A stretch of 24,000 nucleotides of DNA, taken from NCBI RefSeq assembly GCF_034044715.1, contig NZ_JAXCLW010000010.1:73147-97146 (forward strand). Reading direction: 5' to 3'. Within the stretch, counting starts at the first letter, position 1, and every line of letters begins with the position of its first letter. This document shows, piece by piece, positions 8,204 through 24,000 of this stretch. The notes beneath the pieces were generated by a model that searched no databases, had not been told where the DNA came from, and saw only the letters and a list, made by a program, of their open reading frames with translations. The DNA is from Dongia soli. GTDB lineage: Bacteria; Pseudomonadota; Alphaproteobacteria; Dongiales; Dongiaceae. The translations under genes were made by a program, and so were the position numbers.

Positions 8204-9927
8204 TCAAGCCCCCCCGCCGGTCTGCCTTTGATGAATGCTTCCGGATGCTGCACGAGCATGTCGGCCAACGACCGGAAGGAGCGAACCGCTTCGTTAAGCT
8301 GCACGATGAGCCGCTGCAGGTCGCGGCTGAATTTGGTGTTGTCGCCGTAGCCGGTATTCAGCGACAGGAACAGCCGATCGACATTGGTCATGGTCTTTTG
8401 CAGGCCCATCATCACTTGCGGCAATTGCTTGAAAGCCGGTCCTGTTCCGGTGTTGAGCTCGCGCACGAAGGCGCTCGCTTCTTTGACGGCGCCGGCTGCT
8501 TCAGCAAGCGTCTGCCGCAGCTCTGTACTCCTGGAGAGGTCGTTGGCCGAAGCCAGGATGCCGTTGAGGCTTGCGCCGATCTGGGCAAAGGGAATTGCAT
8601 TCAGTTTATTGAGCAGGTCGGTTGCGGAGGTTTGCAGGCCGCTCAAGCCGGCGGCATCGCTGGCCGGGAGCACCACATCCGTGCCTTCCATCCGCGCCGT
8701 CGCCGGCGTGGCGCTCGGTATGAATTCGAGCGCCACGACCTGTTGGCCGGTCAGCAGATTGCTGCTCTGCAGCGTCGCGCGCAGGCCGCGCTTCACCATG
8801 GTGTCCGCGGCTTCCAGGGCCGTCTTGAAAACCGCTTTCGTACCGACGCCCAGGATGCGTTCCGGTTCGATCTCATAATGGACCGGAGCCAGGATATCGT
8901 TTCTGTCGCCATCATAGACCAGCCCGACGGCGGTGACGCGGCCGATGGTAAGGCCGTGCATCGTCACTTCAGATCCGGGCGCAATGCCCCGGACGGAGCC
9001 AGAGAAATAGGAGATAACCGGGATCTTCCGGTTATAGGAAGCAGCATCGGCGGTGTCGCGATCGGGGAATAGTGGGAAAACGTGGTTCTGCACACTCGTG
9101 GTGCGGCCATGGCTTTGGGGCGGGGTTTCGAAAGCCATGCCGCCCAGCAGGATGGCGCGCAGGGATTCGACCTGAAGCTCGACACCGCCGCCGCCGAATT
9201 TCACGGAAACGCCCGACGCGTTCCAGAAGCGGGTATCGTCATTCACATAGGCGTCATAGGGGGCACGGACGAAAGTCCGGATCGTGACGCTTTCCGCCAT
9301 ATCGGCGATGTCCCAGCCGAGCACTTCGCCGACATCGAGATCGCGGAAGAAAACAGGCGAGCCGACGGAAATCGAGCCTAAGCGGTTGGCCTTGATCAGA
9401 AAGGTGCGGCCCGGCACATGCGCTTCCTGGACCGGCGGATCTTCGCGTCCGACGAAGTTCCGTTTCGGCTTCCCCGGCTTTTCAGGCGGCAGCATCGCGA
9501 TATAGGAGCCGGAGAGCACAGTCTCCAGTCCGGAGACATTGCCTGCGAATAATCGTGGCTTGACCACCCAGAACACTGTTTGATCGGTCAGCAGCGGCTC
9601 GGCTTCGCGCGTCGTCGCGATTGTCACGATGACACGCGAATTGTCTGGGGTAAGGGTGAAGCTTTGGACTGTGCCGAAGACGATATCCTTGAAGCGCAAT
9701 TGCGATTGCCCAGCCGTCAGGCCTTCGGCGCTTTCGAATGAGACCGTGATCGTCGGGCCCTTCTTCGACCAGGTATCCCAGGCAAGCCAGCCGCCGATTG
9801 CAATGGCAACCAACGGAATGATCCAGATAATCGGGATGCGCCGTGCGCGGCGCGTCTTTGCCTGCGGATGCGCCGGTTCTGCCGAATGTGGCGCCTCCTG
9901 CGCGGGTGGCTCGATGATGTCACTCAT
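8200..9927 (-). CDS. pqiB: PqiB-like MCE-domain intermembrane transport protein
   Basis: N-terminal anchor and first MCE domain read RRIPIIWIIPLVAIAIGGWLAWDTWSKKGPTITVSFESAEGLTAGQSQLRFKDIVFGTV, followed by repeated MCE-like segments and a C-terminal helical region. The ORF track opens at a TTG at 10005. The ATG at residue 27 (coordinate 9927 by ORF-track arithmetic) is preceded by AAGGAA and is the likelier start. Confidence 0.9.
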   Translation of the reverse strand: MSDIIEPPAQEAPHSAEPAHPQAKTRRARRIPIIWIIPLVAIAIGGWLAWDTWSKKGPTITVSFESAEGLTAGQSQLRFKDIVFGTVQSFTLTPDNSRVIVTIATTREAEPLLTDQTVFWVVKPRLFAGNVSGLETVLSGSYIAMLPPEKPGKPKRNFVGREDPPVQEAHVPGRTFLIKANRLGSISVGSPVFFRDLDVGEVLGWDIADMAESVTIRTFVRAPYDAYVNDDTRFWNASGVSVKFGGGGVELQVESLRAILLGGMAFETPPQSHGRTTSVQNHVFPLFPDRDTADAASYNRKIPVISYFSGSVRGIAPGSEVTMHGLTIGRVTAVGLVYDGDRNDILAPVHYEIEPERILGVGTKAVFKTALEAADTMVKRGLRATLQSSNLLTGQQVVALEFIPSATPATARMEGTDVVLPASDAAGLSGLQTSATDLLNKLNAIPFAQIGASLNGILASANDLSRSTELRQTLAEAAGAVKEASAFVRELNTGTGPAFKQLPQVMMGLQKTMTNVDRLFLSLNTGYGDNTKFSRDLQRLIVQLNEAVRSFRSLADMLVQHPEAFIKGRPAGGLE

Positions 9928-10258
9928 GGGAGTTCCTTCTTTCGAGCTGTTTTGCCTGTCCTGCAGCGCGCGGAGGCGACCCCCGGTTACGCCGATCGAA
10001 CTCAACGCATGGTCGGTACGTAATGCGGTCCAGAAAATAACGTGACTTCAGAAGTAGCCTGCCGATCGATCTGATGCAGTCGTCATGGGTTCCATCTTCA
10101 CCAGTCACTTGAAGGGCGAATCGATGGGACAAGGGGAATAGTCCAAACCCGCATGCTATAGTCGTCTAATTCTTATACAGCGGGCCGGGCTCCGTCAAAT
10201 GGTCGGCAATGCCCCATTGGGCGTTGGGGGAATCCCCGGCTTGCAGGCAGCGAATGCA

Positions 10259-10288
10259 TAAAGGGCAGCCTTGCGGGGCTGCCCTTTA
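10259..10288 (-). terminator. Intrinsic-terminator-like hairpin closing the ABC/pcp operon
   Basis: The stem is AAGGGCAGCC (10261-10270) paired with GGCTGCCCTT (10277-10286), with loop TTGCGG. The stem extends to 12 bp with 10259-10260/10287-10288. It starts 19 nt downstream of the ATPase stop (10307). On the minus-strand transcript the stem ends in UUUAU. Confidence 0.55.
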
Positions 10289-10306
10289 CTGCGACCCAAG
10301 CCGAGA

Positions 10307-11416
10307 TCAGCTTGGTTCCGCGTGGAGCGGTATGATTCTGTCGGTCTTCACGGCAAGCCGGACCCTGGCGCCGGATGCTAGATCCTGGTTAGTGGTCGCC
10401 GAGGCGACGATGATCTGGCCGTCGGCGAGCTTGAACTGGAAGTCCGTATAGATGCCGCGATAGACGACTCGTTCCAGTACTGCATCGAAAGCGGTCTCGC
10501 CCTCCGCGACATTTCCGACGGAGTGGGCATTAATGCGGATGTCTTCGTTGCGGATGGCGACCGCGGGCGGATTGGCGGGATTGGCCACGGCACCGCAATC
10601 GAGGCGGAAGGCAGCGCAGTCGAAGACGGTTTGCGTCCCGCTGCCGATAAAACGTCCTTCGACAACATTGCTGCCGCGGAAGAACTGCGCGACGAATTTC
10701 GTGCGGGGCTGGCGGAACAAAGCCTGGGGCGCATCGACCTGCACCAGATAGCCCCAATTGAGCACGGCGACGCGGTCGCTCATGGTCAGGGCTTCTTCCT
10801 GATCATGGGTGACATAGACGAACGCGGTGCCGGTGGCGCGCTGGATATCCTTGAGCTGAACCTGCATCTCACGCCGGATCTTTTCGTCGAGCGCGGAAAG
10901 CGGCTCATCGAGCAGCAGCAGGCGGGGACGCGGCGCCAAGGCGCGGGCGATGGCGACGCGCTGCTGCTCGCCACCGGAGAGCTTGGTCACCGGCTTGTCC
11001 TCGAAACCGGGCAGGCTCACCAGATCGAGCAGTTCCGAGACGCGCTCGCGCAAGGCCGCGCGATCGAGATTACTGCGCCGCAGACCATAGCCGATATTCT
11101 GCGCCACGGTCATATGCGGGAAATTGGCATATTGCTGGAACACCATGCCAAGGCCGCGCCGCCAGGGCGGCAGATCGGTCACGTCCTCGCCATTGATGAG
11201 GATGCGGCCGCCATCGGGCTGTTCCAGGCCGGAGATCATGCGCAGGACGGTGGATTTGCCGGAACCGCTGGGGCCCAGCATCGTGAAGAACTCGCCATTG
11301 CCGACCTGGAGATCGACACCGGCGGCGGTTACGCGGTCGCCGAATTTCTTCCAGACGGTGCGGACGTGAAGGAGGGGAGCGGAAGCCGCTGCAGCCTGCA
11401 TTGATACATCCTGCAT
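10307..11416 (-). CDS. ABC transporter ATP-binding protein, PotA/MalK-like with C-terminal TOBE-type domain
   Basis: 369 aa. Walker A is GPSGSGKST, the signature is LSGGEQQRVAIARAL, Walker B is LLLLDEPLSALD, and the H-loop is VYVTHDQEEA. An alternative ATG at 11401 has a better AGGA 8 nt upstream. Confidence 0.95.
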   Translation of the reverse strand: MQDVSMQAAAASAPLLHVRTVWKKFGDRVTAAGVDLQVGNGEFFTMLGPSGSGKSTVLRMISGLEQPDGGRILINGEDVTDLPPWRRGLGMVFQQYANFPHMTVAQNIGYGLRRSNLDRAALRERVSELLDLVSLPGFEDKPVTKLSGGEQQRVAIARALAPRPRLLLLDEPLSALDEKIRREMQVQLKDIQRATGTAFVYVTHDQEEALTMSDRVAVLNWGYLVQVDAPQALFRQPRTKFVAQFFRGSNVVEGRFIGSGTQTVFDCAAFRLDCGAVANPANPPAVAIRNEDIRINAHSVGNVAEGETAFDAVLERVVYRGIYTDFQFKLADGQIIVASATTNQDLASGARVRLAVKTDRIIPLHAEPS

Positions 11417-11424
11417 GGGCGGGT

Positions 11425-12099
11425 TCAGCCTTGATCGAGAGAGAGTAACAATGCCGTGCGGACGGCATCGAGCATCATGTCCAGGCTCATCGAGGCGAGA
11501 TCGGCGCGCTGATGCAGTTCGAGACGGCCTTCCGCGAGGAGATCGTCGAGCAGATCTGCCACCTGCTGCGGCAGATAAGGCAGATGGATGAAGCCGCAGC
11601 GTGTCTCCAGGCCCAGGCGCTGACAGGCACCGAGCGCCCGATAGAGCGTGGTGTTACACAGGAACGTGCCGGCGGTATCCGAACTGCGCGCCGGAATGCC
11701 CTTGCCGCGCAAGGCGGCGATGATCTTCGCGACCGGCAGGGTGACGGCGCGGCCATCGGGGCCGCCGGGCTCGATCGGCGTATCGAGCGGACGCTGGCCA
11801 TCATTATCGGCGATTTCGAAACTGGCGCGGTTGACGGCGATCCGTTCGAGCCGGATGACCGCTTCGCCGGGCCACAGGCCGAGCGACGCGATCACCACCG
11901 GCTTATGCTTGGCGATCGCGTCTTCCAGCGGTTTCTTCGCGGCATCGAAGGAAACCGGCAGGAGCAGGCCGCGAACCACGGCATCGCGGATCGTGCTGCC
12001 GTCGAGCGCCCGGACGATCTCGGCCGAGGGATTGAGCGGCCTGCCGCCATAGGGTTGGAAGCCGGTAAGGAGGATTTCGCGCATGATCTCAACCTTCAT
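11425..12099 (-). CDS. pcp: Pyroglutamyl-peptidase I (pyrrolidone-carboxylate peptidase, peptidase family C15)
   Basis: 224 aa. It has ILLTGFQPYGG..LNPS. The catalytic triad contexts match the Bacillus enzyme: LERIAVN (Glu), TAGTFLCN (Cys), GFIHLPY (His). ATG 12099 overlaps the permease stop by 11 nt. An alternative ATG is at 12084. Confidence 0.9.
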   Translation of the reverse strand: MKVEIMREILLTGFQPYGGRPLNPSAEIVRALDGSTIRDAVVRGLLLPVSFDAAKKPLEDAIAKHKPVVIASLGLWPGEAVIRLERIAVNRASFEIADNDGQRPLDTPIEPGGPDGRAVTLPVAKIIAALRGKGIPARSSDTAGTFLCNTTLYRALGACQRLGLETRCGFIHLPYLPQQVADLLDDLLAEGRLELHQRADLASMSLDMMLDAVRTALLLSLDQG

Positions 12100-12871
12100 T
12101 CGCTGTCGTCGCGGCCTGGCCCCGGCGTCCCAGCACCACCAGCGCCAGGATGAGGAGTAGCGTTACCGCGATGATGAGGCTCATCAAAGCATACATATTA
12201 GGCGTCAGGCCGACCTGCTGGTAGCGCGACCAGACGAAGGTCTGAACCGTGTTATTGCCGCCTTGCACGATGGCAGTTCGGACCGTCTCGTTGAAGGACA
12301 GGATAATTGAGAAGATCGCCGCGCCACTGATGCCGGGCGCGATCTGCGGCAATTCGATATCCCAGAAAGCCTGCAGGCGATTGGAGCCACAAGTATAGGC
12401 GGCTTCCAGATAGATCGTGTCGAAGCCGGACATCACCGTCAGTATGATCAGGAAGGCGAAGGGCAGGGCCCAGAGGATCTGCACCACCGCCATGGTGAAG
12501 AGCGAGGGCGGGATCGCCGTCAACTTGAAGAACAGGCTGGTGGAAACGCCCATGCTGGCGCCGGGGATGAAGAGCGGCAGCAGGATCACCGTGATGATCA
12601 GCCGGGGAATGCCGAAAGCGCGCACCGCTTGGGCGGCAGCGAGGCCGAGCAGTGGTGCTGCGATGCCGACGATGATCGCGAGAATGACGGAATTGAGCAG
12701 CGCGCCCATCAACATCTGGTCGCCGGCGATAGCGCCGAAGCTGGTGAAATTCATCGTGCCGGTGGCCGGGTCCTGCATGGCGAGGAGGACCGGCGGTACC
12801 AACGGCGCATAAAGAAAGACGAGGACGCCGATCAGAAAGAGCCAGACGAGACTGCGAGATGTCATGGTCAC
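12089..12871 (-). CDS. ABC transporter permease (PotC-like)
   Basis: 260 aa with about 6 hydrophobic segments. The EAA loop is YLEAAYTCGSNRLQAFWDIELPQIAPG. There is a 4-nt overlap with the upstream permease gene. Confidence 0.9.
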   Translation of the reverse strand: MTMTSRSLVWLFLIGVLVFLYAPLVPPVLLAMQDPATGTMNFTSFGAIAGDQMLMGALLNSVILAIIVGIAAPLLGLAAAQAVRAFGIPRLIITVILLPLFIPGASMGVSTSLFFKLTAIPPSLFTMAVVQILWALPFAFLIILTVMSGFDTIYLEAAYTCGSNRLQAFWDIELPQIAPGISGAAIFSIILSFNETVRTAIVQGGNNTVQTFVWSRYQQVGLTPNMYALMSLIIAVTLLLILALVVLGRRGQAATTANEG

Positions 12872-13743
12872 CGTCCCAGCATCTTGCCGAGGAAGAGCCG
12901 CAGGTCGAAGAAGCGCAGCCAGAGGGTGAGCATCAGCAGCATGCAGCCGACCACGACCGAGGACATGGCCGCGGCCATCGGATAGTTCAGCACATCGAGC
13001 GAACTGGTGATCGCATTGCCCATGAGCTGGTAGCCGACGCCGCCCAGGATCTGCGAGACGGCGACCTCGCCGAAGGAACCGACGAAGCCGAAGATCGCCG
13101 CGGCGGAGACGCCGGGCAAGGAGAGTGGCAGGACCACCCGCAGGAAGGTGCCGAGCGGCGGTTCGCCCAGCATCCAGCTTGCCTCGATCAGCCGCCGGTC
13201 GATGGCGCTGAGCGAAAGCCAGATGGGATAGACCATGAAGGGCATATAGGCGGCGATGAGGCCAAGATAGACAGAGAAATCACTGAACAGCAGCCAGTCC
13301 ACGGGTGCGCCGGTCAGGCCGATCAGCTGCAGAAACCCGTTGATCGGCCCCGTGCGTCCTAGAAGATAAGCCCAGGCGAAGGTCCGGATCACGTAATTCA
13401 CCAGGAAGGGCACCGAGAGCAGAAACAGGAAAATCCGGGTGCGCTGGGGTGACAGTTTGAAGGTCGCGAGATAGGCGACCAAATAGGCGATCGCCAGCAT
13501 GATGATTGTCGCGCTGGCTGCCACCCAGAAGCTGCGTTGAAGGACCGTGAAGCGCGCGCCCTCAAAGAAGAGGGCGTATGAAGCCAGGGTGAAACCTGGC
13601 TTCATGCCGATCATCTGCCGCTCCCAGAAGCTGACCATCAAGGTCAGCACCAGCGGAGCGATAATAGCGACGGCGCAGATCAGAACGGGTCCGCCAAGCA
13701 GCGCTATCGTGCCGGCATCGCGGCGCTTTATAGCAAAGCTCAT
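12868..13743 (-). CDS. ABC transporter permease (PotB-like)
   Basis: 291 aa, multi-TM. The EAA loop is IEASWMLGEPPLGTFLRVVLPLSLPG. Confidence 0.9.
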   Translation of the reverse strand: MSFAIKRRDAGTIALLGGPVLICAVAIIAPLVLTLMVSFWERQMIGMKPGFTLASYALFFEGARFTVLQRSFWVAASATIIMLAIAYLVAYLATFKLSPQRTRIFLFLLSVPFLVNYVIRTFAWAYLLGRTGPINGFLQLIGLTGAPVDWLLFSDFSVYLGLIAAYMPFMVYPIWLSLSAIDRRLIEASWMLGEPPLGTFLRVVLPLSLPGVSAAAIFGFVGSFGEVAVSQILGGVGYQLMGNAITSSLDVLNYPMAAAMSSVVVGCMLLMLTLWLRFFDLRLFLGKMLGR

Positions 13744-13780
13744 GATACCCGTCCCAGAAATCCCGGTCCCAAATTGGCGC

Positions 13781-14959
13781 TTACGCGGCTTTGAAACGCT
13801 GCCACTGTTCTTCGTAGGTCTCGATATTAGTCGGCCAGCGGGCCTGCCAGGTGCCGCCGGATTCGAACTTCTTCTTCACCCCGGCATCGATCTCGGCAAC
13901 CTTCTGCGCCGTCGCCTTGTCGAATTTGGACGACTTCGCCGCGTAAGCCGGCGCGCCCGGATTGGTCATATAGCCGCGCATACTGGTGATGACCGCGCCA
14001 TATTCGGGGCTCAGCATGTAATCCAGCAACTGATAGGATGCCTCGATCTTTTCCGGCGAGCGGTCGCCGGCGACGAGATAGGCCGCCATGGCCCAGAGCA
14101 GATAGCCTTCCTTCGGCTGGGCATAGACCGCGTTGATGCCCTTTGCCTTGGCGGCGAAGACCATCGGCTCCCAGCAATCCATCACATAGACTTCCTGGTT
14201 CACCAGCAGATTGACGGCCTGTTCGAAGCTGGACCAGACCACGCGGAACTGGCCTTCCTTCTTCTTCTGGATCAGGAAGTCAACCACCTTGGTGATCTCG
14301 TCCGGCGTCATATCGGCCGGGTCCTTGATGTCGGCGAGACCGGCGCTTTTCATGTAAAGCGCGGTCTTCTGGCCAGCCGAGGTGTAGTTGTCCTCGATGG
14401 CCACATAGCCCTTGAATTTCGGATCGAACAAAGCGGCGTAGGAATCAAGCGTGCCGCCGGTCTTCTCCGGCAGATAGGCGAAGGCATCGCCCTGCAGCAC
14501 GGTGGGGACGCCATAGACCTTGCCGTCATAGCCGATGAAGTCGAAGCCCTTCGAGCCCGGCTTGAGATAAGACGAGATATAGGTGTTGCTCTGCCAGTTC
14601 TTCAGCTTGCTGACATCGATCGGCAGGATGAGCTTGTTTTCGACCAGCGGCTTCTGCATGCCGCCGACGATGTTGATGATGTCATAGGTCTGCTGGCCGC
14701 CGCCGGCGAGCAACTGGTTCAGCACGGCCGAAGGGCCGTTGCCGATCGCCGCGACATTGACCTTGTTGCCGGTGGCCTTGGTGTAGTCCGACCAATCGCC
14801 GGGATCACCGACGCCAATATCCGCGAGCGTTACCGTCTGGCCGGCGGCGAAAGCGGCACCCGGCCGGAGCGCCAGCGCCCCCATGCTCAGCGCGCCGATT
14901 CGGGCGGAAGCGCCCGCCAAAAGGCTGCGGCGGTTAAATTGAATCGATCCTGCGGTCAT
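13781..14959 (-). CDS. ABC transporter periplasmic substrate-binding protein, PotD/PotF-like, with twin-arginine-type signal peptide
   Basis: 392 aa. The N-terminus is FNRRSLLAGASARIGALSMGALAL..AAFA. The body is paralogous in pattern to the 181-1344 protein (YDIINIVGGMQKPLVENKLILPID versus WDLINVNNPWARKIMYPEKLIKPLD). It is the first gene of the importer operon. Confidence 0.9.
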   Translation of the reverse strand: MTAGSIQFNRRSLLAGASARIGALSMGALALRPGAAFAAGQTVTLADIGVGDPGDWSDYTKATGNKVNVAAIGNGPSAVLNQLLAGGGQQTYDIINIVGGMQKPLVENKLILPIDVSKLKNWQSNTYISSYLKPGSKGFDFIGYDGKVYGVPTVLQGDAFAYLPEKTGGTLDSYAALFDPKFKGYVAIEDNYTSAGQKTALYMKSAGLADIKDPADMTPDEITKVVDFLIQKKKEGQFRVVWSSFEQAVNLLVNQEVYVMDCWEPMVFAAKAKGINAVYAQPKEGYLLWAMAAYLVAGDRSPEKIEASYQLLDYMLSPEYGAVITSMRGYMTNPGAPAYAAKSSKFDKATAQKVAEIDAGVKKKFESGGTWQARWPTNIETYEEQWQRFKAA

Positions 14960-15012
14960 TTTCTATGTCTCTCCTCCCATGCGGTCCGGTTGCGGACCTT
15001 TAACGATGTTGG

Positions 15013-15030
15013 CAAAATATCGATAATTTG
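15013..15030. promoter_or_regulatory. 18-bp near-perfect palindrome CAAAATATCGATAATTTG, a candidate operator upstream of the ABC/pcp operon
   Basis: 8 of 9 symmetric pairs match around the central ATCGAT. It lies 54-71 nt upstream of the binding-protein ATG (14959). It shares the core TATCGATAA..TT with the palindrome at 15732-15741. Confidence 0.35.
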
Positions 15031-15124
15031 TCGAGGAATTACTATAAAGAGAAAACGCTGGTGACAGGGTGATCTCCCAATCGAAAGCTGGCGCGCGAGA
15101 GCCAGCGCCAAGAAGCTTTCAATC

Positions 15125-15664
15125 CTATAGTGAGGCCGCTGACCGGGAGCCCTGATCATAATAACCCGAGAGAGTCCGCATCTGGCTGGCGATCCGCGAT
15201 AAGGTCGCTTCGTCAACACCGAGCGAGATGACCGGCTCCACCAGGAGCGCCTCGCGAATCTCCTTGTACTGCTCGCAAGCCTTGGCGCCCGCCGCTGTTA
15301 TGGCGATCATCTTCTCCTTGCCCTGCTTATGGCTGCTGATCAGCTTCTGCCGCTCCAGCTTCTTCACCGAATAACTGACTACATGGGTGTCTTCGATATT
15401 GAGGACGAGGCAAATATCGGCCAGCCGCTTCGGCTTTGAGCGATGCTGCACCGAATGCAACACCAGCACGTCGATGGGGGAGAGGTCCGGATAACCGGCG
15501 GCGGCCATGCAGCGCACCATCCAGCGCTGGAAAGCGTGCGAGATCAAGATCAGGCCGAACTCGAATTCGGAGAGGACAGGCAGGGCGCCGCTGGCCAGGA
15601 ACGACGATGAAACGATGGGGCCCATCGAAGACGTTTTTTGGGGGGAGGTCGGTTTTTTAGACAC
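15125..15664 (-). CDS. MarR-family (winged-helix) transcriptional regulator
   Basis: The wHTH region reads LSPIDVLVLHSVQHRSKPKRLADICLVLNIEDTHVVSYSVKKLERQKLISSHKQGKEKMIAITAAGAKA. It is divergent from the oxoprolinase gene. The start is uncertain: the ORF track gives ATG 15730, GTG 15664 has GGAG 8 nt upstream (preferred), and ATG 15625 is also possible. Confidence 0.75.
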   Translation of the reverse strand: MSKKPTSPQKTSSMGPIVSSSFLASGALPVLSEFEFGLILISHAFQRWMVRCMAAAGYPDLSPIDVLVLHSVQHRSKPKRLADICLVLNIEDTHVVSYSVKKLERQKLISSHKQGKEKMIAITAAGAKACEQYKEIREALLVEPVISLGVDEATLSRIASQMRTLSGYYDQGSRSAASL

Positions 15665-15712
15665 GGCTTGGTCTCCGATAACTTTGGTTAAGCGCCGCCC
15701 GGGGATGCCGGG

Positions 15713-15742
15713 TTGACAAAACGACGACATTTTATCGATAAC
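15713..15742 (+). promoter_or_regulatory. Candidate sigma70-type promoter (TTGACA-N18-GATAAC) for the oxoprolinase operon, overlapped by the perfect palindrome TTATCGATAA (15732-15741)
   Basis: TTGACA is at 15713-15718 and GATAAC at 15737-15742. The 10-bp perfect palindrome covers the spacer/-10 junction. A half-site, CGATAACTT, recurs exactly 60 bp upstream (15676-15684 versus 15736-15744). Confidence 0.3.
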
Positions 15743-15783
15743 TTATCTGTATGACGAAGCTTGCGGCATCATCGAGGCATATC

Positions 15784-18700
15784 ATGAAATCGGCTAAATG
15801 GGACTTCTGGATCGACCGTGGCGGCACTTTTACAGATATCATTGCCCGCCTCCCGGATGGAACCCTGCGCGCCCATAAGGTGCTGTCGCAGAACCCCGAA
15901 GCCTATCGCGACGCCGCCACCCAAGGCATCCGCGAATTGATGGGGGTGCCTCCCAATACCCCGATTCCCTCCCGGCAGATCGCCACCATCAAGATGGGAA
16001 CGACCGTCGCGACCAATGCGCTGCTGGAGCGCAAGGGCGACCGGACGCTGCTGGTCATCACACGCGGTTTCCGCGATGCGCTGGAGATCGGCTATCAGGC
16101 GCGGCCGGAAATCTTCGCAAAGAAGATCGTTAAGCCGAGCCAGCTCTATGAGCGAGTTCTCGAGATCGATGAACGGATCAGGGCCGATGGCGCGGTCGAG
16201 ACGGCGCCTGATGCGGCCGCCATCCGCCGCGACCTGGAAGCAGCCTTCGCAACGGGCATCCGCGCCTGCGCCATCGTCTTCATGCATGCCTATCGCCATC
16301 CGCAGCATGAGCGGATGGTTGCCGATATCGCCCGGCAGGTCGGCTTCACCCAGGTTTCCGTCTCCCATGAGGTGAGCCCGCTGATCAAACTGGTGGGACG
16401 CGGCGATACCACTGTGGTCGATGCCTATCTCTCGCCGGTCCTGCGGCGCTATGTCGATCAGGTCGCCTCGGAACTGGATGGCGGAGGCGATGGCGATAAA
16501 GACGGCAATGCACGGCTGATGTTCATGATGTCTTCGGGTGGCCTTGCCGATGCGGATCTGGTGCAGGGGCGCGACGCCATTCTCTCCGGTCCGGCCGGCG
16601 GCGTGGTCGGCTGCGTGGAAACGGCGCGCATCGCCGGTTTCGACAAGGTGATCGGCTTCGACATGGGCGGCACCTCCACGGATGTCTCGCATTTCAACGG
16701 CGAATATGAGCGTACGCTGGAAACCGAAGTGGCCGGCGTGCGCATGCGGGCGCCCATGATGCTGATCCACACGGTGGCGGCAGGCGGCGGATCGATCCTG
16801 CAATTCGACGGTTCGCGCTTCCAGGTCGGTCCGGAATCGGCTGGCGCCAATCCGGGGCCGTGCTGCTATCGCCGTGGCGGCCCGCTTGCCGTCACCGATG
16901 CCAATGTCATGACCGGCAAGCTCGATCCGCGCTTCTTTCCGGCGATTTTCGGCCCTGAGCGCAATCAGCCGCTGGATGTGGCGGCGGTGCGCGCGGCTTT
17001 CGCCGAGCTGGCGGCAAAGGTGGGTGCGGGGCGTTCGCCGGAAGCGGTGGCCGACGGCTTCATCCGCATCGCCGTCGAGAACATGGCCAATGCCATCAAG
17101 AAGATCTCCGTCCAGCGCGGCTATGACACGGCGGAATATGCGCTGCAGACCTTCGGCGGCGCGGGCGGGCAGCATGCTTGCCTCGTCGCCGATGCGCTCG
17201 GCATGAAGACGATCCTCATCCATCCGTTCTCGGGCCTGCTTTCCGCTTATGGCATGGGTCTCGCCGATATCCGCGCGACGCGCCAGCGCACGGTGGAAAT
17301 GCCGCTGGAAGCGACGGGGCTGGAGACAGCCCGGAAAATCCTCGACGGCCTGACCGGCGATGTGCGCGACGAGCTGATCCGCCAGGCGGTTGAGGAAGCC
17401 GACATCAGCTACCGCCGCCGGGCCCATATCCGGTATGCCGGCACGGATACCTCGCTCGATGTCGAATTCGGCGATATCGCCGCCATGACCGCCAGTTTCG
17501 AACGCGCCCATCTGGCACGCTTCGGCTTCATCGACGAGACGCGCCGCCTCAGCATCGAGGCCGTCTCGGTCGAGGCGATCGGCGGCGGCGCCCCGGCCGA
17601 GGAGCCCGAGCAGTCGTTGTCGAGCGCGCCGGCAAAGCCGGTGGCCGAGACGCGCTTCTTCTCGCAGGGCGTCTGGCATGAAGCGGCGATCTATCAACGT
17701 GATACGCTGTTCCCCGGCGCACGCCTCGCCGGCCCCTCGCTGCTGGTCGAACCGCATCAGACCATCGTCATCGAAGCTGGCTGGGAGGCCGAGGTCACGG
17801 CGAAGAATCATGTGGTGCTGAATCGCACCGCCGCGGCGCAGGTCGCGCCGAAGATCGGCACCCAGGCCGATCCGGTGATGCTGGAGGTCTTCAACAACCT
17901 CTTCATGTCGATTGCCGAGCAGATGGGGCTAACCCTGCAGAACACCGCCTATTCGGTGAACATCAAGGAGCGGCTGGATTTCTCCTGCGCGATCTTTGAT
18001 GCCGATGGCCGCCTGGTGGCGAATGCGCCGCATATGCCGGTGCATCTGGGATCGATGGACCGCTCGGTCGAAAGCGTGATTCAGGCCCATGAAGGCAATA
18101 TTCAGCCCGGCGACGTCTATGTGATCAACGCCCCTTATAACGGCGGCACGCATCTGCCGGATATCACCGTCGTGACGCCGCTTTTCGATGCGGCAGGTAA
18201 AAAGATCCTGTTCTTCGTTGCCTCCCGCGGCCATCACGCCGATATCGGCGGCGTGGCGCCGGGATCGATGTCGCCGGAAGCAACCACCATCGAGGAAGAG
18301 GGCGTCTATATCGACAACTTCAAGATGGTGGATCGCGGCCGCTTCCTGGAAAAGGAACTGACGCAACTGCTGACCGGCGCCAAATATCCGGTGCGTAATG
18401 TCGTGCAGAACATCAACGATCTGAAGGCGCAGATCGCCGCGAATGAGAAGGGCATCGCCGAACTGCGCCGCATGGCGGATCATTTCGGCCTGGATGTCGT
18501 GCATGCCTATATGGGCCATGTCCAGGACAATGCCGATGAAAGCGTGCGGCGGACGATTTCGCGCCTGTCGGATTCATCCTTCGAATACGAGATGGATCAA
18601 GGCTGCGTCATCCGCGTGAAGATCAGCGTCGATCACGCAAAACGTGAAGCAACAGTGGATTTCACCGGCACCTCGCCGCAGCGAGATGATAACTTCAACG

Positions 18701-19404
18701 CGCCGGAACCGGTGGCGCGCGCCGCCGTCATGTATGTCTTCCGCGTCATGGTGGATGCCAATATCCCGATGAATGCCGGCTGCCTGCGGTCGATCAATCT
18801 GATCGTTCCCAAGGGTTCCATGCTCTCGCCGCAATATCCCGCCGCCGTGGTAGCCGGCAATGTGGAAGTGAGCCAGGCGGTGACGAATTGCCTGTTCGGC
18901 GCACTGGGTGGCCTGGCGGCCACGCAGGGGACGATGAACAATCTCACTTTCGGCAACGACAAATATCAGTATTACGAGACGATCTGTTCCGGTGCACCGG
19001 CCGGCGAAGGGTTCGATGGCGCCCATGCGGTGCAATGCCATATGACCAATTCACGGTTGACCGATCCGGAAATCCTCGAATTGCGTTTCCCCGTGGTGCT
19101 GGAAGACTTCCATATCCGCGCCAATTCCGGCGGTCGCGGTCGCTGGCGCGCCGGTGACGGCACGTCGCGGACCATCCGCTTCCTGGAGCCGATGAGTTGC
19201 GCGATCCTGTCGGGCCATCGTCGCGTGCGTCCCTTCGGCCTGGCGGGCGGCGAGGCCGGGCAACTCGGCGAAAACATCGTCCGACGCAAGGATGGCAGCC
19301 TCGAACGCCTGCAGGGCGCCGACCAGACCTTCATCGAGGCCGGCGAGGCGATCATTGTGCGCACGCCGACCGGTGGCGGCTATGGTGCGCCCGAGGCAAA
19401 ATAG
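15784..19404 (+). CDS. ATP-dependent 5-oxoprolinase / hydantoinase-family lactamase, fused HyuA-HyuB (OPLAH-type)
   Basis: The ORF track gives 15751-19404 (1217 aa). ATG 15784 ([21 protein letters not shown]) is preceded by GAGG at 6-nt spacing and matches the usual family N-terminus. Hydantoinase_A motifs ([22 protein letters not shown]) are followed by a hydantoinase_B half ([43 protein letters not shown]). Confidence 0.95.
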
Positions 19405-19411
19405 GGCGGGG

Positions 19412-19587
19412 TCGTCAGTCGCCACCATGGACCCTCGGATCAAGTCCGAGGGTGACAAGCGAGTTGGAGTGTGCGCCGTGCCCTAAATTGCTGGCATCAT
19501 GATGCCACCGATCATCGCACAGCACTAACCATGAACACAGTTGTCACCCTCGGACTTGATCCGAGGGTCCATGGTTGCGACTAACGA
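19412..19587. repeat. MITE/REP-like palindromic intergenic element: terminal inverted repeats flanking an 82-bp core with a central perfect palindrome
   Basis: 19418-19458 (GTCGCCACCATGGACCCTCGGATCAAGTCCGAGGGTGACAA) matches the reverse complement of 19541-19581 at 40/41. The match extends to 45/47 (19412-19458 versus 19541-19587). Each arm contains its own hairpin, ACCCTCGGA-N5-TCCGAGGGT. The 16-bp perfect palindrome TGGCATCATGATGCCA (19492-19507) sits exactly at the element midpoint (19499.5). Confidence 0.8.
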
Positions 19588-19643
19588 TTGTTACCTGTGC
19601 CGCGCCAATTCATCATTTTTAGCACCACGGCCTGCCTCTTCCG

Positions 19644-19670
19644 TGGACCTCGGATCAAGTGCGAGCAAGC
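19644..19670. repeat. Degenerate third copy of the repeat arm
   Basis: TGGACCTCGGATCAAGTGCGAGCAAGC compares with TGGACCCTCGGATCAAGTCCGAGGGTGACAAGC at 19428-19460. It has the same orientation, with one 1-nt deletion, one 5-nt deletion and one substitution. Confidence 0.45.
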
Positions 19671-19888
19671 ATCCCGGCGGCCCATCTTTCCGCCCGCACG
19701 ATTCTTTTATGTCCATTAAATTTCTTTTCGGCTATGCCTATGCTGGCCGGGCGACGCGGCACCGACCGGAAAACGGCAAGCGTGCGGCGCAAGGACGATG
19801 AGTGCAGGGGAGATGTCATCGGGCGGTCAGGTTTCCGGCGTCCGCTTCTTTCCCGGTTTCTTGGAACGTTCTCGGAAAGGAAGAGCAA

Positions 19889-21676
19889 GTGACCACCTTT
19901 ACCACGCGCCCCGAGATATTGGGCACTTTCGGCGTCGTTACCTCGACCCATTGGATCGCCTCAGCTGTCGGCATGCGCATTCTGGAGCGCGGCGGCAATG
20001 CCTTCGACGCGGCGGTGGCGACGGGATTTGCGCTGCAAGTGGTCGAGCCGCATCTGAACGGCGCCGGCGGCGACATGCCGGCGATCATCTATTCGAAGAA
20101 GAAGGACAAGGTCGAGGTCATTTGCGGCCAGGGACCGGCGCCAGCCAAGGCAACGATTGCGCATTATAAGAGCGAAGGGCTGAAGATCATTCCCGGCGAC
20201 GGATTGCTGGCGACGGTCATCCCCGGCGCTTTCGACGGCTGGATGCTGATGCTGCGTGATTACGGCACGATGTCGGTGCGCGATGTGCTGGAGCCGGCGA
20301 TCTATTATGCCGAGCACGGCCATCCGGTCCTGCCGGCGGTATCGAACGCGATCAAGAACATGGGCGGATTTTTCGAGAAGGAATGGCCCACCTCCTTCGC
20401 CACCTGGCTGCCGGGCGGCCAGGCGCCGGAACCGCATTCGAATTTCAAGAATCCCGCTCTCGCCGAAACCTGGAAGCGGGTGGTCGCCGAGGCCGAGAGC
20501 CGGAAGAATCGGGAAGACCAGGTCGAAGCAGCACGCGACGCCTTCTATCGCGGCTTCATCGCCGAGAAGATTGCCGATTATCTGAAGACGGCCGAAGTGA
20601 TGGATGAAAGTGGCGGCCGTCACAAGGGCGTTCTCAGCGCCGATGACATGGCGAGCTGGCGGGCCACAATCGAGGAGCCGCTGACTTATGATTATCACGG
20701 CTGGACCGTCGCCAAGACCCAGCCCTGGAGCCAAGGACTGGTGCTGCTGCAATCGCTGGCCTTGCTGAAAGGTTTCGATCTCGGCGCGATGGATCCGAAC
20801 GGTGCTGACTTCGTGCACACGGTGATCGAGGCGATGAAGCTCGCTTATGCCGATCGCGAGGTCTATTACGGCGATCCGCAATTCAGCAAGGTGCCGGTGG
20901 GCGATCTGCTGTCGGACGGCTATAACGGCGAACGCCGCCGGCAGATTACAACGCAGGCATCGCTGGAGCTGCGGGCCGGTAAGTTGCCGGGCTTCGAGGC
21001 GCAACATGGGCTGACCGAAAAGGTGCTGGCCAGCATCGAGCCGGCCCAGGGCCCGGTCTATGAACCGACCATGGCACATCTCGCGGAGAAGAAGGGGGAT
21101 ACGGTTCATATCGACGTCATCGACCGCGAGGGCAATATGGTGTCGACCACGCCATCCGGCGGCTGGCTGCAATCCTCGCCGGTCATTCCAGGCCTTGGCT
21201 TCGCGCTCAATTCGCGTGCGCAGATGTTCTGGCTGTCGGACGGGCTGCCGACCTCGCTGGCGCCGCGCAAACGGCCGCGCACCACTTTGACGCCCTCCCT
21301 CGCGCTCTATGAAGGACGGTCGACTTTGGCTTTCGGCACGCCGGGCGGCGATCAGCAGGATCAGTGGCAGTTGATCTTCTTCCTGCGCTATGTGCATCAC
21401 CAGATGAACCTGCAGGCGGCGATCGAGGCCCCGCTGTTCCATTCGATGCATTTCCCGAGCAGCTTCTTCCCGCGCACCGCCGAGCCGGGTCACATGACCA
21501 TCGAAGCCAGCATCGGCGAGCATGTGCTGAACGACTTGCGTAGGCGCGGACATCAACTGACCGTCACCGATCCCTGGACGGTCGGCCGCCTGACGGCGTC
21601 CCGGCGCGATGTCGATGGATTGCTGCGGGCAGCCGCGACGCCGCGGCTGATGCAGGCTTATGCCATCGGGCGGTAG
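19889..21676 (+). CDS. Gamma-glutamyltransferase-family protein (Ntn hydrolase), without signal peptide
   Basis: The ORF track opens at ATG 19802, but GTG 19889 ([28 protein letters not shown]) is preceded by AAGGAAGAG at about 7-nt spacing. The family N-terminus is present ([20 protein letters not shown]). The autoprocessing/nucleophile context is [27 protein letters not shown]-terminal GTPGGDQQ is also present. Confidence 0.9.
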
Positions 21677-21753
21677 GGAGAAATCGGTTCCCGCCGGTCG
21701 CGTTCGACGATAGGCTGCGATGGTCTGAAGCAACCGCCGTTGGAGCGCGGATC

Positions 21754-22785
21754 ATGAATACGTCGAAGGTCGTTCATGTCGTGAGCTGCCATGCGGAAGG
21801 CGAGGTCGGCGATGTCATCGTCGGCGGCGTCGCCCCGCCGCCGGGCGATACCGTCTGGGAGCAGTCGCGTTTCATCGCCCGGGACGAGACCCTGCGCAAC
21901 TTCGTCCTCAACGAGCCGCGCGGCGGTGTCTTCCGCCATGTGAACCTGCTGGTGCCGCCCAAGGATCCGCGTGCCCAGATGGGCTGGATTATCATGGAAC
22001 CGGCCGATACACCGCCGATGTCGGGATCGAATTCGATCTGTGTCGCCACTGTGCTGCTCGATAGCGGCATCATCCCGATGCAGGAGCCGGAAACCCGCCT
22101 GACCCTGGAAGCGCCGGGCGGGCTGGTCGAGATCGTGGCCACCTGCCGCAATGGCAAGGCCGAAAAGATCCGGGTGCAGAACCTGCCATCCTTCGCCGAT
22201 AAGCTCGACGCGCCGCTGGAAGTGGAGGGGTTGGGCACGCTGAAAGTCGATACCGCCTATGGCGGCGACAGTTTCGTCATCGTCGATGCCCATGCGCTGG
22301 GCTTCGCGATCCGCCCCGACGAGGCCAAGGATATCGCGCAGCTCGGCATGCGCATCACCAAGGCGGCCAATGAACAGCTCGGCTTCAGTCATCCAACGCA
22401 GGATTGGAACCACATCTCCTTCTGCCAGATGGCCGCTCCTCTGACCACGGAAGAAGGGATTGCCTGTGGCGCCAATGCGGTTGCCATCCGGCCGGGGAAG
22501 ATCGACCGCTCGCCGACCGGCACCGGCTGCTCCGCGCGGCTAGCCGTGCTGCATGCCAAGGGCATCCTGAAGGTCGGCGACCGTTTCATCGGCCGCTCCA
22601 TTATCGGCTCGCGCTTCGACTGCGAGATCGTGAAGGAGACCCGGATCGGCGCCAAGCCAGGCATCGTGCCGGCCTTGGCTGGACGCGCCTGGATCACCGG
22701 CACGCATCAACACATGCTGGAACCGACCGATCCCTGGCCCGGCGGCTATCGTCTGTCGGATACCTGGCCAACCGTGGCCGGCTGA
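21754..22785 (+). CDS. Proline-racemase-superfamily enzyme; its active-site pair is Ser/Thr, so it is probably a dehydratase-type member (trans-3-hydroxy-L-proline dehydratase-like) rather than a racemase/epimerase
   Basis: 343 aa. The N-terminus is [21 protein letters not shown]. The first catalytic-position motif is [10 protein letters not shown] (Ser90, codon 22021-22023) where racemases have MCGHN. The second is [14 protein letters not shown] (Thr255, codon 22516-22518) where racemases have DRSPCGTG. GGAG lies 9 nt upstream of the ATG. Confidence 0.9.
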
Positions 22786-22877
22786 GGATTGTACGAGCGC
22801 GACGAGGGCAATGGTGGACCAGCCGGCGCGCAGTCCACCCCATGCACCAAATGATAAGATGCGGGTCGGGGGGCTGC

Positions 22878-23285
22878 ATGACAGATGTTGGCGGAAAAAG
22901 CGATTTAACCGCACTCGTATCAACCGATATTTATCGGTTGAAAAAAATGCTTGTCGAGCATCTCGGTTATCTCTGCGTATCCTTCATCAACTGGCTGCTC
23001 TGGCGGCTGACAGCCTTATCAATTCCCACTCTGTTTGTGATCGCCGTGGCATTGATCGCAGAAGCCGTCCACCGGTGGGTCAGTCCGTATTTTCCCAATT
23101 GGGTACGGATCTTCGGCTATCTCTTTTTCGCTTTCTATGCGCTTCCGACACTGGGTTCGCAACAGTGGTTTCAGAAGATCCTATTCCCACAATCATTGTG
23201 GAAAAGGGATCATTCCGCTTGGGATCGCTCTAAAAGAGAATTGTTCATCGTGTGGGCCGCACGGCAGCGACTGCGTGATCTGTAA
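22878..23285 (+). CDS. Hypothetical small membrane protein (2-3 predicted TM helices) in a low-GC islet
   Basis: This is the 3' portion of ORF 22404-23285, beyond the proline-racemase-family gene. From ATG 22878 it reads MTDVGGKSD...LGYLCVSFINWLLWRLTALSIPTLFVIAVALIAEAV...VRIFGYLFFAFYALPTLG. There is no recognisable family, no clear SD, and alternative ATGs at 22842, 22851 and 22947. Composition is atypical. Confidence 0.35.
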   Translation: MTDVGGKSDLTALVSTDIYRLKKMLVEHLGYLCVSFINWLLWRLTALSIPTLFVIAVALIAEAVHRWVSPYFPNWVRIFGYLFFAFYALPTLGSQQWFQKILFPQSLWKRDHSAWDRSKRELFIVWAARQRLRDL

Positions 23286-23447
23286 ACAACATCTCCTGGA
23301 TCTCCGGCCGGTTGACTTCTTGAGCATTCTCTTGACTTTAAAGTCTCGGCCACTGCCGACTTGTCTCCGTTGGACATGGCGCCAGACGCACGAATAACCT
23401 GCACATGCTGCGCCTTCCGCCATATCGCGTGAGGCCTTACGTCTGTG

Positions 23448-24000
23448 ATGGCTCCTGAACCGGAGCTGTCAGAGACGGAGGTCATGTTGAAAACGATCAC
23501 GGACACACCGGCCACCGCGAGCACATGGGCGATTGCAGCCCTGTCGCTCTCGATGCTGATGCCCTCGCTAGACACCAGCATTGCCAATGTCGCTTTGCCG
23601 AGCCTGGCGCGAGCATTCAACGCATCCTTCCAGGACATGCAGTGGATCCTCCTTTCCTATCTGCTCGCCATCACGGCGCTCATCGTCGGGGCCGGCCGGC
23701 TGGGCGATATCGTCGGCCGGCGCCGGTTGCTGCTGGCGGGGATCGGCCTGTTTACCGCAGCCTCGCTGCTCTGCGGTCTCGCCCCGGCATTCTGGCTGCT
23801 GCTTATCGCCCGGGTCGCACAAGGACTTGGCGCTGCGGCCATGATGGCGCTGGCCGTCGCCATGGTCGGCGAGACGGTACCGAAGGAGAGGACAGGCAGG
23901 GCCATGGGGCTGCTCGGCACCATGTCCGCAATCGGCACCAGCTTCGGCCCATCGCTCGGCGGTATGCTGATCAGCGGCTTCGGCTGGCGCTCGATCTTCC
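23448..24000 (+). CDS. MFS transporter, DHA2 (EmrB/QacA)-like, 5' part; continues beyond the right edge
   Basis: The open frame from 23433 to the window end is not in the ORF track because it lacks a stop. It reads ...WAIAALSLSMLMPSLDTSIANVALPSLARAFNASFQDMQWILLSYLLAITALIVGAGRLGDIVGRRRLLLAGIGLFTAASLLCGLAP..LLIARVAQGLGAAAMMALAVAMVGETVPKERTGRAMGLLG. MFS motif A (GRLGDxxGRRR) and the DHA2 N-terminal pattern are present. The start is ATG 23448, GTG 23445 or ATG 23484. Confidence 0.85.
   Translation, partial: MAPEPELSETEVMLKTITDTPATASTWAIAALSLSMLMPSLDTSIANVALPSLARAFNASFQDMQWILLSYLLAITALIVGAGRLGDIVGRRRLLLAGIGLFTAASLLCGLAPAFWLLLIARVAQGLGAAAMMALAVAMVGETVPKERTGRAMGLLGTMSAIGTSFGPSLGGMLISGFGWRSIF

Follow-up and report, generated by a model that had tools for sequence, protein, structure and literature searches.

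We analyzed a 24,000-nucleotide stretch of the Dongia soli contig NZ_JAXCLW010000010.1 (hereafter the window) and found that its core, at positions 10307–19404, is probably a two-operon regulon for scavenging pyroglutamyl (pGlu)-capped compounds. In the mechanism proposed from the sequence, a PotD-fold binding protein exported by twin-arginine translocation (Tat) and its ATP-binding cassette (ABC) transporter would import a pGlu-X compound, X being most plausibly an amino acid or a short peptide. The cytoplasmic pyroglutamyl peptidase I (Pcp) from the transporter operon would remove 5-oxoproline from pGlu-X, and the divergently encoded fused HyuA/HyuB protein (HyuAB) would open 5-oxoproline to glutamate in an ATP-driven step. 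A MarR-like protein encoded between the operons would repress both through a 22-bp palindrome until an effector released it, the likely candidates being 5-oxoproline and the imported compound itself. For this locus, we established the gene identities, the intact Pcp triad, the conservation of five genes, their linkage to two unrelated 5-oxoprolinase types, and the conservation and specificity of the operator. From these results, we infer what kind of compound is imported, in which direction the regulation works, what the effector is, and that this HyuAB copy acts as a 5-oxoprolinase.

The genes for the PotD-fold binding protein, two permeases, the ATPase, and Pcp form a five-gene module. A search of approximately 186,000 species genomes, seeded with the binding-protein alignment, returned 80 loci with orthologues of 61–95% identity, in which neighboring genes were counted by tblastn with the window proteins. 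In 69 of the 80 orthologous loci, a pcp gene adjoined those for the binding protein and the permeases. Nine of the 11 loci without Pcp are contigs that end too early, and the other two are long loci that lack it. ATPase orthologues (48–90% identity) adjoin the module in most loci. The binding-protein orthologues are carried by Microvirga, Roseovarius, Sulfitobacter, Rhodobium, Paraburkholderia, Pararobbsia, and Castellaniella. The module thus spans alpha-, beta-, and gammaproteobacteria, together with metagenome-assembled genomes (MAGs) labeled Gammaproteobacteria, Rokubacteria, and Desulfobacterales. The placement of the pcp and ATPase genes was co-directional downstream (window, Microvirga), upstream, or convergent (majority of loci), and divergent placement was also seen. 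Since the gene arrangement differs among the loci, the linkage of Pcp to the transporter has outlived rearrangement. All-against-all clustering of the neighbors yielded no family other than the module genes in more than six loci, and no amine-catabolic gene recurring beside the module. The constant partner of the transporter is a cytoplasmic peptidase, the sole known reaction of which is the removal of N-terminal pGlu. Separately, four to six loci (L020, L030, L059, L070, L071, L089) have genes of an Opp/Dpp-type peptide ABC permease and ATPase no more than 10 kb from the module, which hints weakly at a connection with peptides.

A 5-oxoprolinase is encoded beside the module in about ten loci (tblastn): the fused HyuAB in three (window, genome G005, locus L021), and PxpA(BC) in seven (L018, L022, L064, L066, L070, L071, L078). 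In Microvirga massiliensis, the PF02626, PF02682, and PF03746 genes, corresponding to PxpC, PxpB, and PxpA of the prokaryotic 5-oxoprolinase, directly adjoin the module. In the Roseovarius locus L022, a MarR orthologue (48% identity), divergent from pxpBCA, abuts the module. The order in L021 is unlike that of the window, with MarR divergent from HyuAB–binding protein–permease–permease–Pcp–ATPase. PxpABC was adjacent in 7 of the 56 loci that had a flank of 6 kb or more, a set that includes related genomes, against a chance expectation of well under 1% for a single-copy locus within 10 kb. Because the unrelated PxpABC replaces HyuAB beside the module, the module would yield 5-oxoproline and HyuAB would act here as a 5-oxoprolinase. 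We regard this apparent non-orthologous replacement as the strongest evidence for both assignments.

The 1206-residue HyuAB chain contains the Hydant_A_N, Hydantoinase_A, Hydant_A_C, and Hydantoinase_B domains, with 659 bits for the B part. The fused architecture characterizes oxoprolinases, whereas hydantoinases and caprolactamase are unfused (PMC8453981). The fused HyuA/HyuB form is also treated as the oxoprolinase architecture in PMC13274462; that article, citing Niehaus et al. 2017, gives eukaryote-type oxoprolinase homologues in 115 of 984 genomes. Fused HyuAB homologues occurred in 201 of the 401 Alphaproteobacteria that we sampled, with 55–71% identity among the matches listed. PxpA was not found in the D. 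soli genome, which is scored 100% complete; HyuAB-type enzymes are therefore its only recognizable 5-oxoprolinases. A second fused paralogue (contig C1:56310–59984, L100) is situated directly upstream of a same-strand FAD-linked oxidase gene (PF01565/PF02913). No MarR gene is present in the 16-kb stretch examined here, and no operator-like site (up to 7 mismatches) upstream of this paralogue.

The MarR-like protein scored 68.4 bits with HTH_27 and 21.7 bits with MarR_2, the latter being below the cut-off of 27. Its orthologues (51–70% identity) flank fused HyuAB genes in Rhizobium sp. Kim5 and in genomes G258, G170, G290, G150, G304, and G271. The intergenic regions at the MarR/HyuAB loci share a 22-bp palindrome, which is GACAAATTATCGATAATTTGTC in symmetrized form. 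Scanning with the 10-mer TTATCGATAA and one mismatch allowed was uninformative (141 genomic matches), and the 22-mer was used instead. The best match in the 5.26-Mb genome was palindrome 1 of the window (2 mismatches), followed by palindrome 2 (4 mismatches), and the next best had 5. The motif, at up to 6 mismatches, was present in 6/6 MarR-adjacent HyuAB loci versus 1/24 others, as counted in 30 HyuAB loci of other genomes (193 kb). In the MarR-adjacent loci, its position was always 60–100 bp upstream of HyuAB. The single exception among the 24 others was G271, where the MarR gene is 4 kb away, at the end of an operon of D-glutamate cyclase and tripartite ATP-independent periplasmic (TRAP) transporter genes divergent from HyuAB. 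In 1.16 Mb of module loci, at up to 5 mismatches, the motif occurred only upstream of the module (G005, L021, Microvirga aerilata, Actibacterium). The operator site precedes the orthologous importer operon in G005, L020, L021, and L031. As the motif is specific to MarR-adjacent loci and module fronts in other genomes, the shared operator is supported well beyond the window. The first-pass annotation of this DNA had described a MarR-centered divergon with a shared candidate operator; both palindromes proved to be real and are conserved before both gene sets elsewhere. We consider the palindrome a candidate MarR operator, and ligand-released DNA binding is predicted. The regulon appears to center on 5-oxoproline and to recruit different importers by lineage. 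MarR/fused-HyuAB units joined to TRAP transporter genes were found in L146 (G271:C8, 3783–11895) and L144 (G150:C11, 3587–12901). The G271 unit has a D-glutamate cyclase (PF07286) gene attached as well, and G150 has a second operator-like site before the TRAP operon.

The Peptidase_C15 profile matches Pcp over its full length (residues 8–217, 188.5 bits). The triad Glu85/Cys148/His172 is intact, its motifs ERIAVN, FLCN, and GFIH aligning with Pyrococcus PCP (PDB 1IOF), and the N-terminal GFxP(F/Y)GG motif is canonical. The protein represents a slightly divergent subfamily, and its predicted activity is the release of 5-oxoproline from pGlu-X. The same genome contains another transporter–Pcp pair, where a second pyroglutamyl peptidase gene (47% identical) is directly downstream of a major facilitator superfamily (MFS) transporter gene (C1:251098–253406, L099 5099–7407).

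The scores of the binding protein against the YdcS (45 bits, cut-off 725) and PotD (34 bits, cut-off 582) equivalog profiles were far below the thresholds. Its AlphaFold2 (AF2) model (pLDDT 87.7) was submitted to Foldseek, which returned YdcS (6NLP) with an E value of 6.5e-22, and PotF and PotD with 2.8e-20 or weaker. The target-normalized TM-scores of the top folds were 0.75–0.82, and the identities to YdcS, PotF, PotD, and SpuD/E were 19–22%. The opine receptors MotA and AgtB were weaker structural matches; the AgtB ligand is agropinic acid, a 5-oxoproline-ring compound. The binding protein is not an equivalog of any of these receptors.

A pGlu cap renders peptides aminopeptidase-resistant, the free alpha-amino terminus being gone. 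Opp/Dpp-type peptide receptors bind a free alpha-amino terminus, and N-blocked pGlu peptides have no such group, which would make a receptor of another kind necessary. Because Pcp is constant and no leaving-group enzyme recurs, pGlu-amino acids or short pGlu-peptides would be the simplest substrates, with the second product passing into general metabolism. The pGlu-amides of amines are conceivable alternatives.

Several observations weigh against the scavenging of pGlu-capped compounds. The binding protein carries a polyamine-receptor fold according to the Foldseek search with the AF2 model, and we know of no PotD-fold protein that binds peptides. With 186.3 bits, Pcp is just below the TIGR00504 equivalog cut-off of 201.75. 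Only about one in eight loci has an adjacent 5-oxoprolinase. HyuAB is one of two fused paralogues in the genome (61% identical) and resembles OPLAH here in architecture and context; its closest solved fused homologue is named N-methylhydantoinase (414 bits). The palindrome consensus was partly built from the sites of the window itself, and the related genomes in the locus counts are non-independent samples.

Clusters pairing a 5-oxoproline importer with a 5-oxoprolinase are already known from SAR11 (PMC11485210), Corynebacterium glutamicum, and Bordetella (PMC13274462). The pxpTABC/PxpR system of C. glutamicum (PMC13274462) likewise combines a transporter, a 5-oxoprolinase, and a dedicated regulator, and serves the use of 5-oxoproline as a carbon and nitrogen source. 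However, it consists of PxpT and PxpABC and handles free 5-oxoproline, whereas the window has a PotD-fold ABC importer, an embedded Pcp, a fused HyuAB, and a MarR-type regulator. The embedded Pcp, unlike the C. glutamicum arrangement, implies capped substrates rather than free 5-oxoproline. The L-pyroglutamate ABC transporter SAR11_0655, encoded next to pxpABC (PMC11485210; 8WCH), resembles the window in joining a binding-protein-dependent importer to a 5-oxoprolinase, which gives glutamate from an exogenous pyroglutamyl source. It differs in having no Pcp as described and the other oxoprolinase type, and 8WCH was not returned by the PDB search with our binding protein (E ≤ 0.01). The TRAP receptors DctP6/DctP7 of Bordetella pertussis (PMC13274462) link a eukaryote-type fused 5-oxoprolinase to a pyroglutamate importer in a proteobacterium, comparable to the TRAP-joined units of G271 and G150. 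Unlike the window, they belong to TRAP rather than ABC systems, lack Pcp, and bind free 5-oxoproline. Full-text searches, which covered few subscription journals, gave no description of a Pcp–ABC–oxoprolinase module. New features are the incorporation of Pcp into a PotD-fold importer, the breadth of this importer's distribution, a MarR-type regulator whose operator is defined, and the interchange of two oxoprolinase types.

More tentatively, and with slightly less than even confidence, we suggest that the importer with its built-in Pcp is a dedicated and widespread uptake-and-decapping system for pGlu-peptides or pGlu-amides. In several lineages, it would be coupled to a MarR repressor that senses 5-oxoproline and governs the resident 5-oxoprolinase as well. 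If true, the known substrates of the polyamine-receptor fold would grow by a new class, and bacteria would have a further, new way of tapping the pyroglutamate pool of soils and oceans. Free pyroglutamate has lately been shown to be unexpectedly important, being bound by SAR11 transport proteins and used as a growth substrate by C. glutamicum, while bacterial feeding on pGlu-capped compounds is largely undescribed. A five-gene module conserved from Microvirga and Roseovarius to Paraburkholderia would extend pyroglutamate biology to capped compounds. With the 22-bp operator defined and an effector probable, the idea is directly testable, and the regulator might serve as a biosensor. The genomic context also speaks for a 5-oxoprolinase function of the fused HyuAB family in bacteria.

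The importer could instead carry a polyamine or another small amine, with Peptidase C15 having another role, such as the deacylation of an N-acylated or glutamyl-type amine conjugate, and the link to 5-oxoprolinase being indirect. The best structural matches are polyamine receptors, and the permeases and the ATPase are PotB/C/A-like. Moreover, the pcp–ATPase operon of one Dongiaceae MAG (L014, G012:C117, 6203–8989) opens with genes for a second PotD-like binding protein and for a histone-deacetylase-family protein resembling acetylpolyamine amidohydrolase, which hints at an amine-conjugate theme in that lineage. We nevertheless consider amine import unlikely, given the low identity to the polyamine receptors, the equivalog scores, the canonical Pcp triad and N-terminal motif, and the absence of a recurring amine-catabolic gene from the module neighborhoods. 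The repeated adjacency of two unrelated 5-oxoprolinases also argues for 5-oxoproline as the product. Import of free 5-oxoproline as a glutamate source, to which Pcp would merely add 5-oxoproline from intracellular pGlu-peptides, has precedents in the dedicated ABC and TRAP importers clustered with 5-oxoprolinase. TRAP transporters accompany the MarR/HyuAB unit in other Alphaproteobacteria. This explanation is, however, very unlikely in our assessment. Pcp accompanies the transporter in 69 of the 71 informative loci and is far more constant than any 5-oxoprolinase, which is hard to explain for an imported compound that needs no peptidase; the failure to retrieve the SAR11 receptor 8WCH at E ≤ 0.01 points in the same direction. 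It also seems quite improbable that HyuAB is an ATP-dependent lactamase or hydantoinase for another imported ring compound, with Pcp acting on its product or on a side substrate. The family does hold caprolactamase, N-methylhydantoinase, and carboxylases, and the second fused paralogue, of family-typical lineage, could be the housekeeping 5-oxoprolinase. But PxpABC, the only known activity of which is that of a 5-oxoprolinase, replaces HyuAB beside both the module and a MarR orthologue, and the fused architecture is of the oxoprolinase type. The identity range among the matches listed and the presence in half of the sampled Alphaproteobacteria are as expected of a conserved housekeeping activity.

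The first-pass annotation had grouped all nine genes, including a gamma-glutamyl transpeptidase (GGT)-family hydrolase and a proline-racemase-family enzyme, into one regulon. The grouping is supported for the importer, Pcp, MarR, and HyuAB, which share the operator, but not for the GGT and the racemase-family gene, which have neither an operator nor conserved linkage. We assign a low probability to a nine-gene regulon for one class of pGlu-, gamma-Glu-, or lactam-type, possibly opine-like compounds. HyuAB, GGT, and the racemase-family gene are on the same strand, no terminator-like site was predicted in the spacer, and the GGT gene follows HyuAB in G005 too. AgtB, an agropinic-acid receptor, has the same fold as the binding protein. 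Furthermore, pairing of GGT genes with importers is a habit of this organism, as three other signal-less paralogues (36–53% identical) are each beside a PotD-like ABC importer (C4:253344–264678, L097; C3:173065–178801, L098). Two of them are in tandem, divergent from the importer, and are followed by AMP-binding and ApbA genes; the third ends an importer operon from which a TetR gene diverges. Such neighborhoods make a functional tie of GGT to amine- or amide-type imports plausible in this organism. The GisABCD-Ggt locus of Staphylococcus aureus (PMC10355420), which serves glutathione import and nutrient scavenging, offers a precedent for these pairs, an ABC importer clustered with a predicted gamma-glutamyl transpeptidase. 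Its transporter family is different and its known substrate is glutathione, and the GGT–importer link of the window is not conserved. Linkage of GGT to the core was detected only in the window and G005 (87–90% identical), against 0 of the 78 other module loci, and no core genes were found near the GGT homologues (55–58% identity) of eight genomes. The genome scan with the 22-bp palindrome gave no match before GGT or the racemase-family gene, and GGT is separated from HyuAB by a 484-bp spacer that holds a repeat element. In G005, the racemase-family gene is 7.1 kb away among hydroxyproline-type genes. The host, moreover, is outside Rhizobiaceae.

Both genes are probably neighbors of the core rather than parts of the pGlu regulon. 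The GGT scored 294.6 with TIGR00066 (cut-off 357.85). It had been described as signal-less, and indeed no leader peptide follows its revised start. The protein matches PDB 6J3A with 628 bits, and Thr405 aligns with the first residue of the solved small chains; the literature search gave nothing pertinent on 6J3A/6J3I, the closest solved GGT relatives. We suggest that GGT is a lineage-specific addition that may be transcribed by read-through from HyuAB. The proline-racemase-family assignment was upheld at the family level and refined to a trans-3-hydroxy-L-proline dehydratase: the NF047722 score of 654.9 bits exceeds the equivalog cut-off of 550, and the racemase Cys/Cys positions are occupied by Ser90 (in MSGSN) and Thr255 (in DRSPTGTG). 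The window and G005 are collinear over 8801–19453 and again over GGT at 19684–21675. After GGT, G005 has an extra 7.1 kb with a ProC-like reductase, an amino-acid ABC transporter, a dihydrodipicolinate synthase (DHDPS)-family gene, and an enolase-superfamily MR_MLE gene. Beyond these are the dehydratase (91% identity) and an Ldh_2-family gene, and then an MFS gene common to both genomes. The junction sequences of the 7.1-kb difference do not align between the two genomes. The Ldh_2 family includes pyrroline-2-carboxylate reductases. The setting in G005, between the MR_MLE and Ldh_2 genes and 7.1 kb from GGT, indicates that the dehydratase belongs with hydroxyproline-type genes, and it is probably the part of a hydroxyproline cluster that is still adjacent. 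In two further genomes of the genus, dehydratase orthologues (77–79% identical) have unrelated neighbors. The D. soli genome contains no Ldh_2 member, and four ornithine cyclodeaminase (OCD)/mu-crystallin genes are located elsewhere. Where G005 has its Ldh_2-family gene, between the dehydratase and the MFS gene, the window has 585 bp (22788–23372, 52% GC) with no similarity to G005. The only open reading frames (ORFs) of this stretch, 22811–23233 (+) and 23210–23638 (−), gave no Pfam match.

The opine systems of the Agrobacterium Ti plasmid (aga/agt/mot) involve HyuA/HyuB-like lactam-opening enzymes. To our knowledge, Pcp cannot act on N-substituted lactam opines. The likeness to the window is that a PotD-fold protein, AgtB (6HLY), recognizes the 5-oxoproline-ring compound agropinic acid. 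The identities to AgtB and MotA (5L9G) are, however, only 17–20%, the opine lactams are N-substituted and thus not Pcp substrates, the lactamase is split, and the window has no Ti-plasmid context. The suggestion of a Rhizobiaceae context was wrong, since the nearest genome, G005, is a MAG labeled Rhodospirillaceae (87–90% DNA identity over the locus), and its family-group fellows are labeled Dongiaceae or Rhodospirillales. We accordingly rejected the Rhizobiaceae/opine framing, and with it the option of opine-like lactams that had been raised earlier, on the grounds of the host and the N-substitution.

Among 40 fused HyuAB proteins placed in a tree, those of the window and G005 share a clade (100/100 support) with plasmid copies from Rhizobium and Sinorhizobium and with the copy of a "Rhizobium sp." MAG, while the second paralogue (contig C1, 61% identical) groups with copies of the organism's own family. 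The nearest relatives of the binding protein are from Microvirga (83%) and the same "Rhizobium" MAG (78%), compared with 67–71% within the own family. The locus was present in one of the 40 relatives searched, namely G005. Because HyuAB and the binding protein are nearer to Rhizobium and Microvirga than to the own family, and G005 alone of these relatives shares the locus, we take its horizontal acquisition, with a Rhizobiales-like donor, as probable. Only the HyuAB, MarR, and binding-protein genes show the resemblance to Rhizobiaceae.

Pfam and NCBIfam profile scans of the window proteins confirmed all nine genes of the first-pass annotation in order and strand, and found no ChaC/GGCT among the window ORFs scanned with Pfam, as had been stated. 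The features are collected in Table 1. The best NCBIfam matches of the ATPase were PotA-type and below cut-off. We revised three start codons. ATG 15784 is more likely for HyuAB, and GTG 15667 for MarR, where a Shine–Dalgarno (SD)-like GGAG is upstream and the longest ORF extends to 15730. With these two starts, the control region between the genes is 116 bp. The GGT start was moved to GTG 19889. The gap between MarR and the importer operon is 165 bp and contains a terminator-like hairpin; this separation suggests that the importer operon has its own promoter.

Table 1. Features of the pGlu locus and its flank in the window (MITE, miniature inverted-repeat transposable element; REP, repetitive extragenic palindrome; Ntn, N-terminal nucleophile)
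Feature	Position	Strand	Basis or remark
ABC transporter ATPase, PotA-like, TOBE_2	10307–11416	−	Pfam ABC_tran 130 bits and TOBE_2; last in the importer operon
Pyroglutamyl peptidase I (Peptidase C15)	11425–12099	−	PF01470 188.5 bits; between permease and ATPase genes
ABC permease, PotC-like	12089–12871	−	BPD_transp_1; weak PotC match; conserved in the module
ABC permease, PotB-like	12868–13743	−	BPD_transp_1; PotB 141 bits, below cut-off; conserved in the module
Periplasmic substrate-binding protein, PotD/PotF/YdcS fold, twin-arginine-type (RR) signal	13781–14959	−	SBP_bac_8 79 bits; opens the importer operon
Operator-like palindrome 1 (GGCAAAATATCGATAATTTGTC)	15011–15032	.	52–73 bp upstream of the binding-protein start codon
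Terminator-like hairpin, just 3' of the MarR gene, between MarR and the importer operon	15087–15106	−	Consensus scan; predicted
MarR-superfamily winged-helix regulator	15125–15667	−	HTH_27 68.4 bits; start GTG 15667 or ATG 15625
Operator-like palindrome 2 (GACATTTTATCGATAACTTATC)	15726–15747	.	Between TTGACA (15713–15718) and the HyuAB start
Fused HyuA/HyuB, 1206 aa, eukaryote-type 5-oxoprolinase architecture	15784–19404	+	Four Pfam domains in one chain
Repeat element, MITE/REP-like, in the HyuAB–GGT spacer	19412–19670	.	Inverted arms read directly; boundary feature outside the core
Signal-less GGT-family Ntn hydrolase, Thr405 nucleophile	19889–21676	+	PF01019 403 bits
Trans-3-hydroxy-L-proline dehydratase, Ser90/Thr255 (predicted)	21754–22785	+	Pro_racemase 448 bits; NF047722 654.9 bits

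The repeat element of the HyuAB–GGT spacer is symmetrical, and G005 keeps only a 27-bp arm at that position. Its arms gave 358 short matches genome-wide (blastn-short), 179 of them on contig C5 and 137 on C6, and one other match reached at least 60 bp.

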